This document shows, one piece after another, positions 11,443 to 64,000 of a stretch of 64,000 nucleotides of DNA (positions are counted from its first letter, which is position 1; each line of letters begins with the position of its first letter). The position numbers and the translations under genes were made by a program. Under the pieces are notes generated by a model. That model was not told where the DNA came from and did no database searches. It worked only from the letters and a program-made list of their open reading frames with translations. Source of the stretch: Escherichia coli (GTDB lineage Bacteria > Pseudomonadota > Gammaproteobacteria > Enterobacterales > Enterobacteriaceae); the NCBI RefSeq assembly GCF_030013595.1, contig NZ_CP122770.1. One strand, given 5' to 3'.

Positions 11443-12789
11443 TCAGTACCTGAGATGCATAAAAACACCGTACATATGTTTCTTAAAAGGGGGATGATCG
11501 TTATCCAGCCATTTCGGTGGATCGGTATGCAGAACACCAATCTGCTTCATGCCGGTATGCTGCCTGGATTTTCTCGCGCAGTAATCACTGTCTTCATATC
11601 CCATCGTTTCGATGACCACTCTGGCCGTCTTTCCGTCAGGAGCCCTTGCTGTGACAATGAAATCCGGCAGTACATATTTCTTTTCACCATTAACATAAAC
11701 TTCTGTATCAAACAGGGGCCTTTCCAGACTTAATTCCGGCGTACCTGGCTTTCTTTTAAGCCAGCTGGCCACATTCAGAAGAGCAGTGAGCGTGTTTCGT
11801 TCCAGTTTGCTGTCCACAGGCACCGGACATGTCAGTTGATAAAGAGCATGAGCATACCCTTCACTGCAGATGATTCTGCCATCGGCACTCCGGCAAAAAG
11901 CAAGAATAACCCAGTAAGGGGGACGTATTCCGCCCTGCGCTTCACCATTAATACTGATCCCCCGCACAGGTCTGATGACCTGAATATTACCGTTCGCCCA
12001 GTGAATTTCCACAGCATCACGACAGATGTGCTGCGCCATAAAAATCTGAAAGAACATATGCTTTCTTCTGGCAGGCCAGTGTCGTTCTGAATTCTCCAGC
12101 GTTTCCATTAACCGCTCCTGAGACCTTTCAGACATTCCTGGCCGGAAATGGATAATTTCAGATAAGGCTCTTCCCCGAATATACTCCTGCTGTAGTGTAA
12201 CCTGCCGTATGGCATCAAGACACTCACGATAATTAGTCCGGATACGGGGATTAGCCAGGGAATCCAGTTTATTCAGCCCTGCATCTTCAATAAGCGACAG
12301 GAGTAAACGGCCAAGGCGCGGACGTTTCTTGCGAACGGAGGAGCGCTCACCATTATGGTAAGCAGAGCGGGCCTGCAGTCTGATAACAGAATTACTGTCA
12401 TCAGGTGGTAAAAAGTTTCTGTAATTTATACGGGTGCTAACGGGATGCCGGCTTGCTCCGAAGGATGTTTCCTCTTCATTTCCGGATAACTGACGATACA
12501 TGGGGCATTCAGGTGCATGCTCATGATTAAAACTGGACAGATAAAGAGTACCCGTATTGTTTTTAAGAGCAGCAAAATTCATGGCCGGCGAATCTCCCGG
12601 AATACAGTCACACTGTAACCATGCATCATACTCACGCATTTCCCGGAGAAGAGCATTGGCCAGGTTATGTTGTGCCATGGTTGCTGGCCTTTTCAGTCCA
12701 CAGACCGTCTTTACTGCAGTCTCTTCCTCACTGCTAAGCTCCCGAATCACTTTGCCCCGGGGATTCTTCTTTACAAGTATCATTGGCAT
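11443..12789 (-). CDS. Hypothetical 448-aa protein with a Cys/His cluster and a possible nuclease-like C-terminal region
   Basis: Long ORF with GGAG RBS before ATG at 12789 (MPMILVKK..); motifs CDCIPGD and HEHAPECP; C-terminal YVLPDFIVTARAPDGKTARVVIETMGYE loosely resembles a restriction-endonuclease-like core; no family assigned. Confidence 0.6.
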   Translation of the reverse strand: MPMILVKKNPRGKVIRELSSEEETAVKTVCGLKRPATMAQHNLANALLREMREYDAWLQCDCIPGDSPAMNFAALKNNTGTLYLSSFNHEHAPECPMYRQLSGNEEETSFGASRHPVSTRINYRNFLPPDDSNSVIRLQARSAYHNGERSSVRKKRPRLGRLLLSLIEDAGLNKLDSLANPRIRTNYRECLDAIRQVTLQQEYIRGRALSEIIHFRPGMSERSQERLMETLENSERHWPARRKHMFFQIFMAQHICRDAVEIHWANGNIQVIRPVRGISINGEAQGGIRPPYWVILAFCRSADGRIICSEGYAHALYQLTCPVPVDSKLERNTLTALLNVASWLKRKPGTPELSLERPLFDTEVYVNGEKKYVLPDFIVTARAPDGKTARVVIETMGYEDSDYCARKSRQHTGMKQIGVLHTDPPKWLDNDHPPFKKHMYGVFMHLRY

Positions 12790-13142
12790 AATGAAAGCAC
12801 TCCTTATGTACATGCTTAAACAGTAAGTAAAATATACAAAGAACCCCCCATGAAACAAAGGCAGAGATGAACTGTGCGCCCCGATATCTTCTTCTGATAT
12901 CCTTTCAAATGAATTGTTTTTATTTATATCATGACAACATTAAAGTGAGAGAATATATCAACCATGTTTCTGTCAGGGTTCAGTAGAATATCAATTCGAC
13001 TGTCACGCCATAACTGTAACTACCTCGAGTATAAATATTCAGAGAATGGACTTATTAGCCATGAAAAATCACCTGATGGGAAATTTACTAATTTATGGAT
13101 TGTGATATTATTAAAGAGTAAAACCAGCCAGCCGAGGTATTT

Positions 13143-13736
13143 ATGGGAAAAAATCAGGAAGAAAGGAAAACTCCCGTCATTGTGGTGAAAAAACGTCGTA
13201 CTTTTTCGCCACCGTCCTTATCCGAAAAAACAGATATTATCGCACCTGTATTTACTGAACAGACGGCAGAATCAGCCCCCGCCGGAATAAATTCATCTGC
13301 CGTCGAAACACATATCCCCGAAGCGCCAGCCAGGAAGAAGAAAAAGAAAAGACACCGTTTTCCACGTCCCTCCCACTGGACCCGTGAGTATACTCACGAG
13401 TGCGTGGAAAAAATAAAGGCCCTGTTTCCTCATCTTCGTGCTGAAGGTGGTGGATTTATTCCCCTGAAAATTGGCATAAGCAATGATATTTCGGCATTTC
13501 TGGCAGAAAGCCCGGATACAGAACTGTCCATGGACGAATGGTTCTGTGCAGTGTCCTGCATCACCTCCCGCCGCGTATATCTGCAGCGGACCTCTGTCGC
13601 CGGCGTCCCTCGTTATGGGCTGGATGGTCATCCCGATGGGCAGGTCTCAGAAACTGAAGCACAGAGTGCTGTTCAAAGACTGGCGATAATAGAACAACGG
13701 TGGCTCAGGATGAAGGAACGGCAGACTGAGCAATAA
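13143..13736 (+). CDS. FinO/ProQ-domain RNA-binding protein (FopA-like)
   Basis: Basic N-terminal half (KKKKKRHRFPRP) followed by a FinO-like domain pattern (..EKIKALFP..GGFIPLKIGISNDI..RRVYLQRTSVAGVPRYGLDGHPDGQVSE..); a hairpin GAGTCTGcttaCAGACTC follows the stop. Confidence 0.65.
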   Translation: MGKNQEERKTPVIVVKKRRTFSPPSLSEKTDIIAPVFTEQTAESAPAGINSSAVETHIPEAPARKKKKKRHRFPRPSHWTREYTHECVEKIKALFPHLRAEGGGFIPLKIGISNDISAFLAESPDTELSMDEWFCAVSCITSRRVYLQRTSVAGVPRYGLDGHPDGQVSETEAQSAVQRLAIIEQRWLRMKERQTEQ

Positions 13737-14017
13737 ACATTTCAGATAACATCATGACATTGTGTATCAGAGTCTGCTTACAGACTCATGGATGCCACCA
13801 AAGGCTCATCAGATGTAAGGCAGAAGCGACGTAACTGCCTTTTGAAAGGAAAAAAGCGACCGCAAGGATGCAATGGATATCTGCCGCATACTGAAATAAA
13901 GTAACAAAAAAATCACCACAATCACGGGGGCTTCCTTCCTGTACTCAGGCCATACCCCCCGCACGTATAAATTTCTCAATCAACAATACAATAAAACTGT
14001 GAATAATATCATCATGA

Positions 14018-14884
14018 TTAACGCATAATTACCCGTGATTCTTTCCTGGTAACGTAAGTACAGTTATCCGGAACCTCCTCCATAATAAAAGACATGGCTC
14101 CAATTTTTACATTACTGCCTATTTTTACGTTAAGCCCGATAATACACGTATGGGCACCGATATCGACATTATCACCAATAACGATATAATTCTCTCTGCT
14201 GTCAGATTCCTTTTCGCCAATGGTCGTATTCTGCCGTATAATCACATTCTCACCGATTTTTACATTTCCGTGAATGACGACGCCTGAATGGTGGGGCAGC
14301 ACGAGGCCTTTACCAATCTGCGCCCCCAGACCAATATCACATCCATACTTTGCCATAAGCGCATTTTTTATCTTGATCGCACATTTTCGTTGTTTTTTAT
14401 TCCCCGATATATACATTTCATTAGCCAGGCGCCACCACAGAAGAAAACCTCTCTGCCTCTGCATACCGTTCCTGATAAGCCGGTGAAAAACAAACTTATC
14501 CCGCATGATAACTTCTGCTTTCCAGTATTCCAGAAGATGACGTTTTTTTCCTGAAAATAAAAACGTGCCAATATGGAAATAAGAAATCGGATTTTTTATC
14601 AACATACGCAAATTTTTAGAAAACAATGAATACAGATGTATTTTATATACACAGATAAAACCGCGCAACAGACATAAATATGACAGTAGCAATGAAAAAG
14701 CAGAGAGTGTGGGTGATACAGAAAAGTAACTGTCAGACATTAAATCTGATGCATCGATAAACAGACGCCCCAGCAGATGCACCTGTAATGCAACGATTTT
14801 GCCGTGTCTGCTACAGAAGTAATACACAAATTTCCGGGGATTCTGCCTTAGCATTTTGATATATTCAGATACGGTAAATCTCAC
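14018..14884 (-). CDS. CysE/WcaB-like hexapeptide-repeat O-acetyltransferase (serine acetyltransferase family)
   Basis: C-terminal left-handed beta-helix repeats GCDIGLGAQIGKGLVLPHHSGVVIHGNVKIGENVIIRQNTTIG...VIGDNVDIGAHTCIIGLNVKIGSNVKIG align with the CysE catalytic domain; the gene is strongly AT-rich; N-terminal start uncertain. Confidence 0.6.
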   Translation of the reverse strand: MRFTVSEYIKMLRQNPRKFVYYFCSRHGKIVALQVHLLGRLFIDASDLMSDSYFSVSPTLSAFSLLLSYLCLLRGFICVYKIHLYSLFSKNLRMLIKNPISYFHIGTFLFSGKKRHLLEYWKAEVIMRDKFVFHRLIRNGMQRQRGFLLWWRLANEMYISGNKKQRKCAIKIKNALMAKYGCDIGLGAQIGKGLVLPHHSGVVIHGNVKIGENVIIRQNTTIGEKESDSRENYIVIGDNVDIGAHTCIIGLNVKIGSNVKIGAMSFIMEEVPDNCTYVTRKESRVIMR

Positions 14885-14904: not shown

Positions 14905-15246
14905 ATGATATTTACAAAATTTCAATCTCTGACCCACAAGATAGATACAATGATTATTCATGATATTAAACGGGAGATGCCATTGAAATACGGGTTATAC
15001 AGGGTGGCCAAATGGTTTGCCTGGCTCGCCCACACAGGAATTTTTTGTACCTTTATTATATATATAGGGTTTTCCATCATCACTCAGCACGCCGGCCAGG
15101 AACTACCGGAGACGTTTAAACATGGATTCGCCTTGACTTTCTGTTCATTTGCAACAGCAGCTCTGGTCAGCCAGTGGATCGGAGGCGGATTGCATAGCAA
15201 ACTGGAAGAAAGAATTCGGATGAAGTGGCAGAACCACGCTCACTGA
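14905..15246 (+). CDS. Hypothetical small membrane protein, divergent from the acetyltransferase gene
   Basis: 113-aa ORF with two predicted hydrophobic helices; its stop sits inside a hairpin CACTGAC-N11-GTCAGTG (15241-15265). Confidence 0.35.
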   Translation: MIFTKFQSLTHKIDTMIIHDIKREMPLKYGLYRVAKWFAWLAHTGIFCTFIIYIGFSIITQHAGQELPETFKHGFALTFCSFATAALVSQWIGGGLHSKLEERIRMKWQNHAH

Positions 15247-15441
15247 CAGGATCACCCGGTCAGTGCACAGAGGGCGGGTGGCGAAGACTCCGGTGACTGC
15301 TCCCCGCCCGCATTGGGCGAGGATTCTCGGCGGTTCTTCGCTGACTGCACCATACCTCCCAGACAAGACTGTTCGGAATATATCGCTCTTACTGGGGGAG
15401 CAGTAAACTAAAAATGAAAAGTATTATTCCTGACTGGAATT

Positions 15442-15723
15442 TTATGGCCACTTCTGTGCGGTATGCAACACGCGCAGGACATACACTTTTCCCCACTGGC
15501 TGTCGACCTCATAAACCAGAACAAAATGGGGGTGAATAACCAGTTCCCGGGTTCCTTCCACACGACCGTTGCGACCTTTATACGGCTGCCCGGCCAGGCT
15601 GCTGGCTGAATAACCAATCCGTTCGTCCAGTTCAATGGCGGCCATCAGGTTCTGCTCCGCAATGTACTCACGAATGCGCTTCCTGTCCTGGCTGGCCAGC
15701 ATGGTCCAGAATATCTCCATCAT
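15442..15723 (-). CDS. ParE/RelE-family type II toxin
   Basis: 93-aa protein ending ..GTRELVIHPHFVLVYEVDSQWGKVYVLRVLHTAQ, typical of ParE/RelE toxins; 4-bp overlap with the upstream antitoxin gene. Confidence 0.8.
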   Translation of the reverse strand: MMEIFWTMLASQDRKRIREYIAEQNLMAAIELDERIGYSASSLAGQPYKGRNGRVEGTRELVIHPHFVLVYEVDSQWGKVYVLRVLHTAQKWP

Positions 15724-15989
15724 TTATCGGAAACCTTCCTGCTCATTTCATCCCGCCATGCAGCGGCAGAAGATTCGACCATGTCATGGGGAAGCACATC
15801 GCCGCGCTCGAGTTGCTGACGTCCTGCCGCAACCTGGTCACGGAACCAGGTATTATGCTGCCGTTCAACGGTCTGGCGCATAAAATCCCGAATTAACTGA
15901 GAGCCATTACGGTCCATGCTTTTTGCAGCGGCCATAAAAGCATCCTTCAGTTCAGCGTCGATTCTTAAACTCATATTAACCTGTGCCAT
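15720..15989 (-). CDS. RHH-type antitoxin (ParD/RelB-like) of the ParE/RelE pair
   Basis: 89-aa protein with N-terminal MSLRIDAELKDAF RHH-like segment, directly upstream of and overlapping the toxin gene. Confidence 0.75.
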   Translation of the reverse strand: MAQVNMSLRIDAELKDAFMAAAKSMDRNGSQLIRDFMRQTVERQHNTWFRDQVAAGRQQLERGDVLPHDMVESSAAAWRDEMSRKVSDK

Positions 15990-17928: not shown

Positions 17929-18005
17929 AAGCTGTCGCTTATGGCGGAGCGATTGTGCCGTGTATTTATACACTGCACAGGGTTGAATCTCTGGTACGGT
18001 TTCAT
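17916..18005 (-). CDS. repY: RepY leader peptide (29 aa), translationally coupled to repZ
   Basis: ATG at 18005, MKPYQRFNPVQCINTRHNRSAISDSLWQV, stop TGA at 17916-17918 overlapping the repZ 5' region, as expected for the IncI1 repY-repZ arrangement. Confidence 0.7.
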   Translation of the reverse strand: MKPYQRFNPVQCINTRHNRSAISDSLWQV

Positions 18006-18019
18006 TATACTTTACCCGT

Positions 18020-18091
18020 ATTCTGTGAGGCCCCCACTATCTTTCGTCGTTCCGCCAAGTTCGTAAGAAAGATAGTGGGGGTTTTCCTTTT
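18020..18091 (+). ncRNA. inc: Inc antisense RNA (replication-control countertranscript) with terminator hairpin
   Basis: Perfect 15-bp stem CCCCCACTATCTTTC / GAAAGATAGTGGGGG (18031-18081) with loop containing CCGCCAA (complement of the rep-mRNA rUUGGCG loop), followed by TTTTCCTTTT, on the strand opposite the rep mRNA leader. Confidence 0.55.
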
Positions 18092-18745: not shown

Positions 18746-19081
18746 TTTGACGCTTTTTTGTATGTTTTTTAAGCTGTTAGTTGACTCGGTGCGTTATACT
18801 AAGTACCCTTTACTGGTCACAGGCAAAACTGTGATCGGGCGTAGGAACCCGCGTAGTCATCGTCGGCGCAGAAGTTAATTTCTTCATTTGGCGTCGTTTT
18901 TTGCCATACCATAAAGACAGGAACTTGTATTTCTTGTCGTCATCTATGGTAGCTCAGGCGGGGCAGGCATTAGCCTGGCCGGTTTCCGATGACGCCGGTA
19001 TTCCTACCCCCGTCTGGGCTATCACCAATGAGCGTAGGAACTCGGTGATAGCGTTTTTAGTTGTCATCGGAGACCTTTGCT

Positions 19082-19369
19082 ATGTCACCTCAACTGATAC
19101 AGAAACTCCCGGCCATCACTCTGTTGGAAGGCATGTTTCCCGAGCTATCAACAAACCAGCTTAAAGTCTGCGTTTTTTACGCAATGGGTGTTCCTTACGA
19201 CGCCATTGCTCAGAACTGTCGGCTTTCTCCCGAAACGGTACGAACCTACCTGAAGCGAAGCCTGAAGAATTTAAATCTGGAAGGATATGATGCACTTCGC
19301 TCTGCTGTGCTGATGCGAACTTTCGTTTTCATGATTAGCAATACAGCTAAAGAAAACGAAAAAATGTGA
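19082..19369 (+). CDS. traA: LuxR/GerE-type HTH transcriptional regulator (first of four genes in the traABCD position)
   Basis: 95-aa protein with C-terminal HTH pattern (..NQLKVCVFYAMGVPYDAIAQNCRLSPETVRTYLKRSLKNL..); GGAG RBS 9 nt upstream; name by synteny. Confidence 0.55.
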   Translation: MSPQLIQKLPAITLLEGMFPELSTNQLKVCVFYAMGVPYDAIAQNCRLSPETVRTYLKRSLKNLNLEGYDALRSAVLMRTFVFMISNTAKENEKM

Positions 19370-62371: not shown

Positions 62372-62459
62372 TGTTAGATACAGACTGTCTTTTCCCGCCC
62401 AGAGCAACCAACTCTGTAGCGGAACAGTAAAAAAGCCGACCTCACCAGTCGGTTTTTTT
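62372..62459 (+). ncRNA. Candidate small RNA unit 1 (promoter to intrinsic terminator, about 88 nt)
   Basis: Sigma70-like promoter TTGACA (62337-62342), 17-nt spacer, TAGAAT (62360-62365); hairpin CAGAG-caaccaa-CTCTG; terminator GCCGAC-ctcacca-GTCGG plus T7 (62435-62459). Confidence 0.35.
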
Positions 62460-62618
62460 ACATCTGTTGTTTCTGCAAATCCGCCCCACCATGCCTGTTA
62501 TACCGGGAAGACTCATGTTCTGGTTACCGTCATCACGACAGAAGTGTCGCCAGACAGTGCTAACCTGCGGATTACAAGGGTGGTTGTTATCAAATGAACA
62601 GAACACTATTATAAGAAC

Positions 62619-62705
62619 GTTAGCTGAAAAGAGATTTCCTCCAGTCAGGGCCACCAACTCTGTAACGGAACAGTAAGAAAACCGACCTCATCAGTCGGTT
62701 TTTTT
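62619..62705 (+). ncRNA. Candidate small RNA unit 2 (paralogue of unit 1)
   Basis: Promoter TTGTTA (62584-62589), 17-nt spacer, TATTAT (62607-62612); conserved 3' block CCACCAACTCTGTAACGGAACAGTAA and terminator (62681-62705). Confidence 0.3.
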
Positions 62706-62771
62706 ACATTTATTACTTCTGAGTAACGACAAGCTGTACGTAGCAAGCTCCCTCTGGCGTGGAGGACGTCA

Positions 62772-62915
62772 GCGGGCTACTATAATGTTGTCTAGGCATT
62801 ACAGTAGAGCCCTTGGTTGATTGATAGAACAATCTCCCGGGGCTTTCACAAACGCTTTCAGCTTACAGCCTCAAGCTCCCCACCGCGATTTTGACGACTT
62901 TCGTATTTTGCAACA
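62772..62915 (+). ncRNA. Toxin-less duplicate of the pnd antisense/leader region (putative orphan Sok/PndB-like antisense RNA)
   Basis: About 85 percent identical over roughly 150 bp to 63735-63900, including the promoter-in-hairpin GGGCTACTATAATG...CATTACAGTAGAGCCC; the minus strand has only a truncated 28-codon mok-like ORF and no hok-like ORF. Confidence 0.4.
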
Positions 62916-63556: not shown

Positions 63557-63709
63557 TTAACGTTTAACTTCGTAGGCTAACGTTGCCACAAGCACTGTGT
63601 TTCCCTGCTGGAGCCGGAGTACGCAAAGCGAATCCCTCACCATCCAGACAAAACACAGAATCGTCACACAGATGACGATTAACATCATTAAAAACGTTCG
63701 CTGTGGCAT
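63557..63709 (-). CDS. pndA: PndA, Hok/Gef-family type I toxin (50 aa)
   Basis: MPQRTFLMMLIVICVTILCFVWMVRDSLCVLRLQQGNTVLVATLAYEVKR, matching the Hok family TM helix, SLC motif and LAYE C-terminus; found by manual translation (below the ORF-track cut-off). Confidence 0.9.
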   Translation of the reverse strand: MPQRTFLMMLIVICVTILCFVWMVRDSLCVLRLQQGNTVLVATLAYEVKR

Positions 63710-63767
63710 CATAGCCCCTCCATTGCCTTACGGCGGTTATCGGGCTACTATAATGTTGTCGAAGCAT
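63564..63767 (-). CDS. pndC: PndC, Mok-like overlapping reading frame needed for pndA translation
   Basis: ORF in another frame overlapping nearly all of pndA and ending 7 nt before its stop; start taken at the internal ATG (63767) within the antisense target region; start uncertain (ORF-track ATG at 63848). Confidence 0.45.
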   Translation of the reverse strand: MLRQHYSSPITAVRQWRGYDATANVFNDVNRHLCDDSVFCLDGEGFALRTPAPAGKHSACGNVSLRS

Positions 63768-63815
63768 TACAGTAGAGCCCTTGGTTGATTGATAAAAAAA
63801 TCTCCAGGGGCTTTC
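63748..63815 (+). ncRNA. pndB: PndB/Sok-like antisense RNA with promoter embedded in a hairpin
   Basis: TATAAT at 63748-63753 on the strand opposite pndCA; predicted transcript overlaps the pndC start region and ends at stem CCCTTGG...CCAGGGG followed by CTTTCT. Confidence 0.45.
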
Positions 63816-64000
63816 TGCTGTATACCGTCCACAAAACGCTTTCGGCATACAGCCTCAAGCGCCCGCAGCTATTCTAACGACTTTCGTATCTGCAACAATC
63901 CTTTTATCACACGGCTAATTCCTCTGGTTAGCTCTTATCGCCTGCAAATAAATTTTTAACCTTTCCGTTTGATTTAAATTCCAGAAATGGAGACTTTGTC

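Follow-up and report, generated by a model that had tools for sequence, protein, structure and literature searches.

A FopA allele encoded beside an IncI1 replicon that carries the Inc/repZ target of pCol1B9 unchanged

The best described relative of the protein studied here is FopA (formerly YafB), which is encoded between yafA and yagA on the Salmonella plasmid pCol1B9 (Gerovac et al., RNA 2020; PMC7491321). FopA is detectably expressed from pCol1B9, and the reads recovered with it by RIP-seq were dominated by Inc, with repZ mRNA co-enriched (PMC7491321). Inc, the RNA that controls IncI1 replication, is ~70 nt long, is antisense in cis to the repZ leader and ends in four U (PMC7491321). Purified FopA bound Inc, the repZ 5'UTR and the complex of the two at ~1 uM, made Inc-repZ duplex formation about sevenfold faster and shielded Inc from RNase (PMC7491321). 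Its N-terminal domain was described as specific to FopA and as containing two stretches of positive charge (PMC7491321). The way in which a FinO domain holds RNA was described for the co-crystal of RocC with RocR, in which the terminator hairpin and its 3' tail are read through a Tyr/Arg pocket for the 3' nucleotide, a beta-turn kept stable by a Gly and a helix with a Ser cap that binds the phosphates of the hairpin (PMC9674577). The FinO-domain protein PcnR, reported to be phylogenetically close to FopA, has been characterised on IncI2 plasmids, where its deletion lifts copy number ~10-fold (Yang et al., NAR 2021; PMC8053102).

The window analysed here is a 64,000-nt stretch of Escherichia coli DNA. 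It contains an ORF with an ATG start and an intact frame whose coordinates, together with those of its local signals and of the replication control elements, are collected in Table 1. The 284-nt intergenic region between yagA and this ORF was compared with that of pCol1B9 and 281 of the 284 nt are shared. Consensus scanning for promoters and terminators around the gene gave counts of 3 against 2.5 and 3 against 1.1 in shuffled sequence, which is not above chance, and the sole plus strand terminator-like site in the scanned region lay within the ORF itself. For these reasons we claim no terminator and keep the promoter as a candidate. A pseudogene or a chance ORF was ruled out by the unbroken frame and by conservation of the family across hundreds of plasmids. 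An antisense ORF (13293-13631, minus strand, 112 aa) and the other ORFs that overlap the gene were dismissed as mechanical, because it is the plus strand frame that has family, fold and orthologue support.

Table 1. Positions of fopA, its local signals and the IncI1 replication control elements in the window
Feature	Position	Strand	Details
Candidate sigma-70 promoter of fopA	13084..13111	+	TTTACT-16-TATTAT, extended -10 TG; consensus match only
Shine-Dalgarno GAGG	13134-13137	+	5 nt before the fopA ATG; direct sequence reading
fopA (yafB) CDS	13143..13736	+	197 aa + stop, 22.3 kDa, pI 9.3; ORF listing and sequence
N-terminal extension, aa 1-80	13143..13382	+	Predicted disordered; two conserved basic stretches, variable linker
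FinO/ProQ domain with Gly111, Ser129, Tyr146, Arg157	13392..13700	+	aa 84-186; Pfam, fold, conservation
repZ replication initiator gene, 343 aa	16897..17928	-	Aligned to pCol1B9 repA/repZ CDS 455-1486
repY leader peptide ORF, 29 aa	17916..18005	-	ORF listing; name from the ColIb-P9 literature in PMC7491321
repZ mRNA leader, stem-loop I and pseudoknot (Inc target)	17941..18089	-	Rfam RF01087 PK-repZ, 194.5 bits, cut-off 44
Predicted Inc antisense RNA, ~68 nt, expected main ligand	18018..18085	+	Ends inferred; identity to pCol1B9 and fold

The translated product was compared with protein families, with known structures and with its own relatives. The domain matched Pfam PF04352 (ProQ/FINO) with 48.9 bits (E=7.3e-13), where the gathering score is 27, and the match spans positions 4-102 of the 109-position profile. 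Searching the PDB by sequence returned the N-terminal domain of ProQ (5nb9, E=5.6e-5) and RocC (7rgs, 7rgt and 7rgu) as the best matches. An AlphaFold2 model was built from an alignment of 27 homologues and searched against the PDB with Foldseek. The top 26 matches were all FinO-domain structures, among them RocC, FinO (1dvo), Lpp1663 (6s10) and NMB1681 (3mw6), with probabilities of 0.77-1.00, and target-normalised TM-scores were only 0.32-0.48, which makes this a model of moderate quality. Residues ~80-196 were modelled as a helical domain with a beta-hairpin at 156-167, with block-mean pLDDT mostly in the 60s to 90s and low at 100-112. Residues 1-75 were modelled at low confidence (pLDDT below 50 at aa 1-5, 7-11 and 20-66) and are probably disordered. 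In the family alignment two basic stretches of this extension, PVIVVKKRR (aa 11-19) and RKKKKKRHR (aa 64-72), are kept in the clade and the Pro/Ala/Ser-rich linker between them varies. The product stops about 10 residues past the FinO domain and is without a ProQ-type C-terminal domain.

The residues that make up the RNA-binding site of RocC were located by alignment and from the published description, and Gly111, Ser129, Tyr146 and Arg157 of the window protein correspond to RocC Gly52, Ser70, Tyr87 and Arg97 (PMC9674577). Across 27 clade homologues, down to 50% identity, Gly111 and Arg157 are invariant, Tyr146 is present in 26 of the 27 and Ser or Thr occupies position 129 in 26 of the 27. 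One contact did not carry over. RocC Arg75, a hairpin-contact residue that is ~80% conserved in the FinO/ProQ family (PMC9674577), has no equivalent in the FopA clade; the aligned codon 134 (window position 13542) specifies F, L, S, Y, D, E or N among the 27 homologues. Because the clade is without this residue, the binding geometry seen in RocC may not apply exactly to FopA. Profile score, fold and key residues agree, and the product is a member of the FinO/ProQ domain family. It is not a ProQ proper or a FinO proper: the ProQ equivalog NCBIfam NF003434 scored 28.2 bits against a cut-off of 127 with the N-terminal FinO domain alone aligned, and the FinO model NCBIfam PRK13754 scored 28.3 bits against a cut-off of 136 over aa 7-193. 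When all six-frame segments of the window were searched with phmmer no second FinO-domain gene was found, the best non-self E-value being 1.8.

Within this family the product was compared directly with the reference FopA, taken as the ProQ/FINO protein of the Salmonella SL1344 plasmid pCol1B9 (NC_017718, 5713-6315). The two are 91% identical (176/194 aa) with lengths of 197 and 200 aa, and Tyr146 and Arg157 carry the same numbering in both. At 22.3 kDa and with a predicted extinction coefficient of 20,970, the window product agrees with the published values of 22 kDa and 21,000 (PMC7491321). Sequence comparison thus identifies the ORF as fopA (formerly yafB), an allelic copy of the characterised gene with full-length similarity to the FopA subfamily. 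The yagA side and the few-kb distance to repZ are common to the window and pCol1B9 (ColIb-P9, IncI1). On the yafA side the pCol1B9 hypotheticals are replaced in the window by other genes, with a serine acetyltransferase-like gene next to fopA. This gene (14018-14884, minus strand) encodes a hexapeptide-repeat acetyltransferase and stands where pCol1B9 has its yafA-region genes; its best NCBIfam matches are EpsC/CysE serine O-acetyltransferases, all far below their cut-offs, and its longest ORF of 288 aa (GTG start) exceeds in length the CDS of 588 nt that is annotated for it in plasmid pO55.

The differences between the two alleles were unevenly distributed. Of the 18 substitutions 17 fall within codons 111-194, and the C-terminal end differs and is three residues shorter; codons 1-110 contain a single difference. 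The 17 substitutions sit in the FinO domain and C-terminal helix and include positions 113, 129, 134 and 175, which align with RocC RNA-contact motifs. Over codons 111-194 the alleles differ by 7 synonymous and 20 non-synonymous changes (dS 0.126, dN 0.112, dN/dS near 0.9), counts that are too small for a claim of diversifying selection. DNA homology to pCol1B9 is lost within ~40 nt past the fopA stop, where the cargo differs, and the gene is mosaic relative to pCol1B9 over 13473-13780, at the edge of the variable cargo region, suggesting a recombination junction inside fopA. When sequences were clustered the window allele fell in cluster P0001 (726 member sequences) and the pCol1B9-type allele in P0013 (3123 members).

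The plasmid context was assessed from matches to other plasmids, Rfam and folding. Matching plasmids identified an IncI1 backbone with pilL, traA, NusG-like traB, traC, colicin Ia and yagA. The yagA gene (11443-12858, minus strand) is divergent from fopA, and downstream of fopA come the acetyltransferase-like gene, the toxin-antitoxin pair yacAB and, beyond these, the replicon, with repZ 3.2 kb and the repZ leader and Inc about 4.2-4.3 kb from the end of fopA. The window carries a true IncI1 replicon, and its Inc/repZ leader is 100% identical to that of pCol1B9. The predicted Inc folds into one long hairpin (-32.9 kcal/mol, z = -6.8) with a loop complementary to 5'-UUGGCG-3', a G5:C5 base and GGGGG-UUUU at its 3' end. 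The original prediction, made from the sequence alone, had placed a FinO/ProQ-domain RNA chaperone at this position near the replicon of an IncI-type plasmid, and the Pfam score, the uniformly FinO-domain fold matches, the PK-repZ match, the distance to repZ and the IncI1 backbone all bear this out. The RIP-seq that it proposed as a check is already in print for the 91%-identical pCol1B9 FopA, with Inc dominating (PMC7491321). The feature is real, was correctly recognised and was already known, and its characterised target is present unchanged.

From this comparison a mechanism can be proposed for the window protein. By analogy to RocC-RocR, the FinO domain would most likely grip the Inc hairpin at its base and 3' U-tail, with Tyr146 and Arg157 forming the 3'-nucleotide pocket, a beta-turn at Gly111 and a helix N-cap at Ser129, and annealing activity would presumably be supplied by the basic, disordered N-terminal extension. 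Binding would protect Inc and let it pair faster with stem-loop I of the repZ leader. Pairing would in turn block translation of repY and formation of the pseudoknot needed for translation of repZ, and would therefore keep RepZ synthesis, and with it copy number, low. Orthology, domain, fold, contact residues, an identical Inc/repZ target and the published orthologue data together lead us to conclude that the window FopA very probably binds and protects Inc, promotes its pairing with the repZ leader and lowers RepZ synthesis. RNA binding and annealing by this allele are expected from those of the 91%-identical pCol1B9 protein, which is the one that was tested. Lower IncI1 copy number in vivo would be expected to follow. 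A 2023 review states this outcome for FopA. Neither a fopA deletion nor a plasmid copy-number assay is reported in the 2020 paper (PMC7491321) and none was found in later literature, and a transposon study of the I-complex (PLoS Genetics 2023) and a 2025 copy-number review are silent on fopA, so that the physiological outcome rests on the review's interpretation.

The distribution of fopA was evaluated using a 1-kb region around the gene, which was found in 1,471 plasmid records, many of them 100% identical and with the gene annotated as "ProQ/FINO family protein". The fopA DNA is 100% identical to genes with that annotation, for example the one for WP_000517696.1. Distant homologues (56-65% identity) lie 2-4 kb from a rep gene of the IncFII_repA family, in a backbone of ash, traA, NusG-like and pilI genes, and a PK-repZ-type leader was present at all four of the four such loci examined. 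Compared across these leaders, the Inc hairpin differs in its stem, with compensatory changes, and keeps its TTGGCGG loop, G5:C5 base and U-tail, which fits recognition of shape and 3' end, not of stem sequence. At one locus (L007) an Inc region identical to that of the window is paired with a FopA that is only 65% identical, so FopA divergence does not follow Inc divergence closely. In the 56%-identical branch (loci L004, L005 and L006, 10001-12072) the fopA homologue has the same orientation as rep, unlike the IncI1 arrangement, and overlaps by 4 nt the start of a gene for a 484-aa UvrD-family helicase on the same strand, suggesting that the two are co-transcribed.

One further copy was found in a different context. 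Plasmid pO55 of E. coli O55:H7 CB9615 (NC_013942.1) carries a 100% identical fopA at 15244-15837 together with yagA, colicin Ia and yacAB. This plasmid is typed IncFIB, and next to its fopA are a type II secretion cluster and an IncFII-type 'replication regulatory protein RepA'. A scan of 31 kb of pO55, about half of the plasmid, gave no PK-repZ match. The pO55 gene looks like an orphan with no cognate Inc target nearby and, as it is identical to that of the window, indicates that fopA can persist without one.

Rfam matched several other RNA elements in the window. A phage P1/P7-type C4 antisense RNA (RF01695, 77.5 bits against a cut-off of 45) was matched at 18942-19029 on the plus strand, where it overlaps the ash-family ORF (18901-19164) and the traA ORF (19061-19369) at their 5' ends, at the head of the traABC region that regulates transfer in IncI1. 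This C4-like RNA is also present in other I-complex plasmids (L004 4620-4707, L006 4620-4707 and L007 14624-14711). Two AgrB-like antisense RNAs (RF02891, 59 and 51 bits) were matched on the plus strand at 62374-62461 and 62620-62707, adjoined by two sok antitoxin matches (RF01794, 67.5 and 131.7 bits) on the minus strand at 62739-62880 and 63707-63864. In close relatives a Hok/Gef family protein is annotated here, and the region is apparently a duplicated type I toxin-antitoxin region.

Other modes of action were weighed against the chaperoning of Inc. The most serious is that FopA, in the manner of PcnR, represses replication mainly by binding a stem-loop of the repY/repZ leader mRNA directly and independently of the antisense RNA, which we consider unlikely. 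It is more serious than a role as a chaperone of many plasmid RNAs, since the affinity of FopA for the repZ 5'UTR equals that for Inc (~1 uM); repZ mRNA was also enriched alongside Inc in vivo (PMC7491321). The relatedness of PcnR and its effect on IncI2 copy number also speak for direct leader binding, and the authors of the PcnR study themselves raised this mode for the IncI1 and IncB/O homologues (PMC8053102). However, the FopA RIP-seq was dominated by Inc and not by repZ mRNA, annealing of Inc to repZ was measurably accelerated, and the IncI1 leader has a pseudoknot architecture that the IncI2 leader is without. Direct leader binding and the chaperoning of Inc are not mutually exclusive.

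A wider role was also part of the original prediction, in which FopA could act on the Inc antisense RNA, the pnd antisense RNAs or candidate small RNAs and so link several RNA-based systems of the plasmid. For Inc this agrees with the orthologue data and the identical Inc/repZ leader, an action already demonstrated and not new, given the published RIP-seq, binding and annealing; the link to pnd and the other small RNAs found no support, which leaves it unsupported rather than refuted. That FopA also chaperones the pnd/sok-like antitoxin RNAs (62.7-63.9 kb) and the C4-like RNA, and thereby couples replication, post-segregational killing and transfer control, is in our assessment improbable. Those RNA genes are present in the window by Rfam match, FinO domains read a generic terminator hairpin with a 3' tail (PMC9674577) and FopA does bind a few unrelated structured RNAs (PMC7491321). 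These extra ligands are chromosomal, however: the top RIP-seq ligands given in the main text are Inc, repZ, STnc1590, mgtM and STnc700, and pnd or tra-region RNA goes unmentioned there (PMC7491321), and the computation here does not separate the window's RNAs from other terminator-bearing sRNAs. There is a slightly smaller chance that exchange of the FinO domain has retuned the ligands of FopA to act in trans on other antisense RNAs, for which the pnd/sok-like RNAs, the C4-like RNA ahead of traA or, as with FinO-RepX, the RNA of a co-resident replicon could be candidates; the identical fopA on pO55, with no Inc/repZ nearby, would fit such a role. Least probable, and in our view very improbable, is that FopA is mainly a fertility inhibitor like FinO, repressing conjugative transfer through an antisense RNA/mRNA pair of the tra region. 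The two proteins share the FinO domain and a weak full-length likeness (the PRK13754 match above), and deletion of PcnR raised transfer ~8-fold (PMC8053102). Against this, the FinO family score falls far short of its cut-off, the FinP/traJ system is absent from IncI1, the published FopA ligands are replication-control RNAs (PMC7491321) and the window yielded neither a paralogue nor a FinP-like partner.

Among plasmids that carry resistance genes, including those for ESBL, IncI1 is a major group, and FopA, acting through Inc as proposed above, would be part of the way in which its replication is restrained. As this role is already in the literature, the window adds only another allele. For an IncI1 fopA deletion no phenotype, either in copy number or in fitness cost, was found published, in contrast to the ~10-fold copy-number effect reported for PcnR of IncI2.

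Together these data place the window protein among the described FinO-domain systems. PcnR is likewise a plasmid FinO-domain protein of ~190-200 aa that restrains its own I-type plasmid. By its description it is set apart from FopA in binding stem-loop 1 of the repR leader independently of antisense RNA (PMC8053102), and the IncI2 leader on which it acts has no pseudoknot (PMC8053102), whereas the window has the IncI1 PK-repZ leader together with Inc, and by this replicon context its protein does not fall with PcnR. FinO of F-like plasmids (1dvo) has the same fold (Foldseek probability 1.00, 27% identity over 115 columns) and, like FopA, is plasmid-encoded, has a basic N-terminal extension and is a chaperone for a cis-antisense RNA/mRNA pair, but that pair is FinP/traJ of conjugation and not Inc/repZ of replication, and the N-terminal regions of the two are unrelated. 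RocC of Legionella, solved with the RocR terminator (7rgu), and ProQ of E. coli and Salmonella (5nb9) are the top PDB matches by structure and by sequence and share with FopA the Tyr/Arg 3'-nucleotide pocket, the beta-turn Gly and the N-cap Ser/Thr. Unlike FopA both are chromosomal, have C-terminal extensions and act on trans-acting or global targets.
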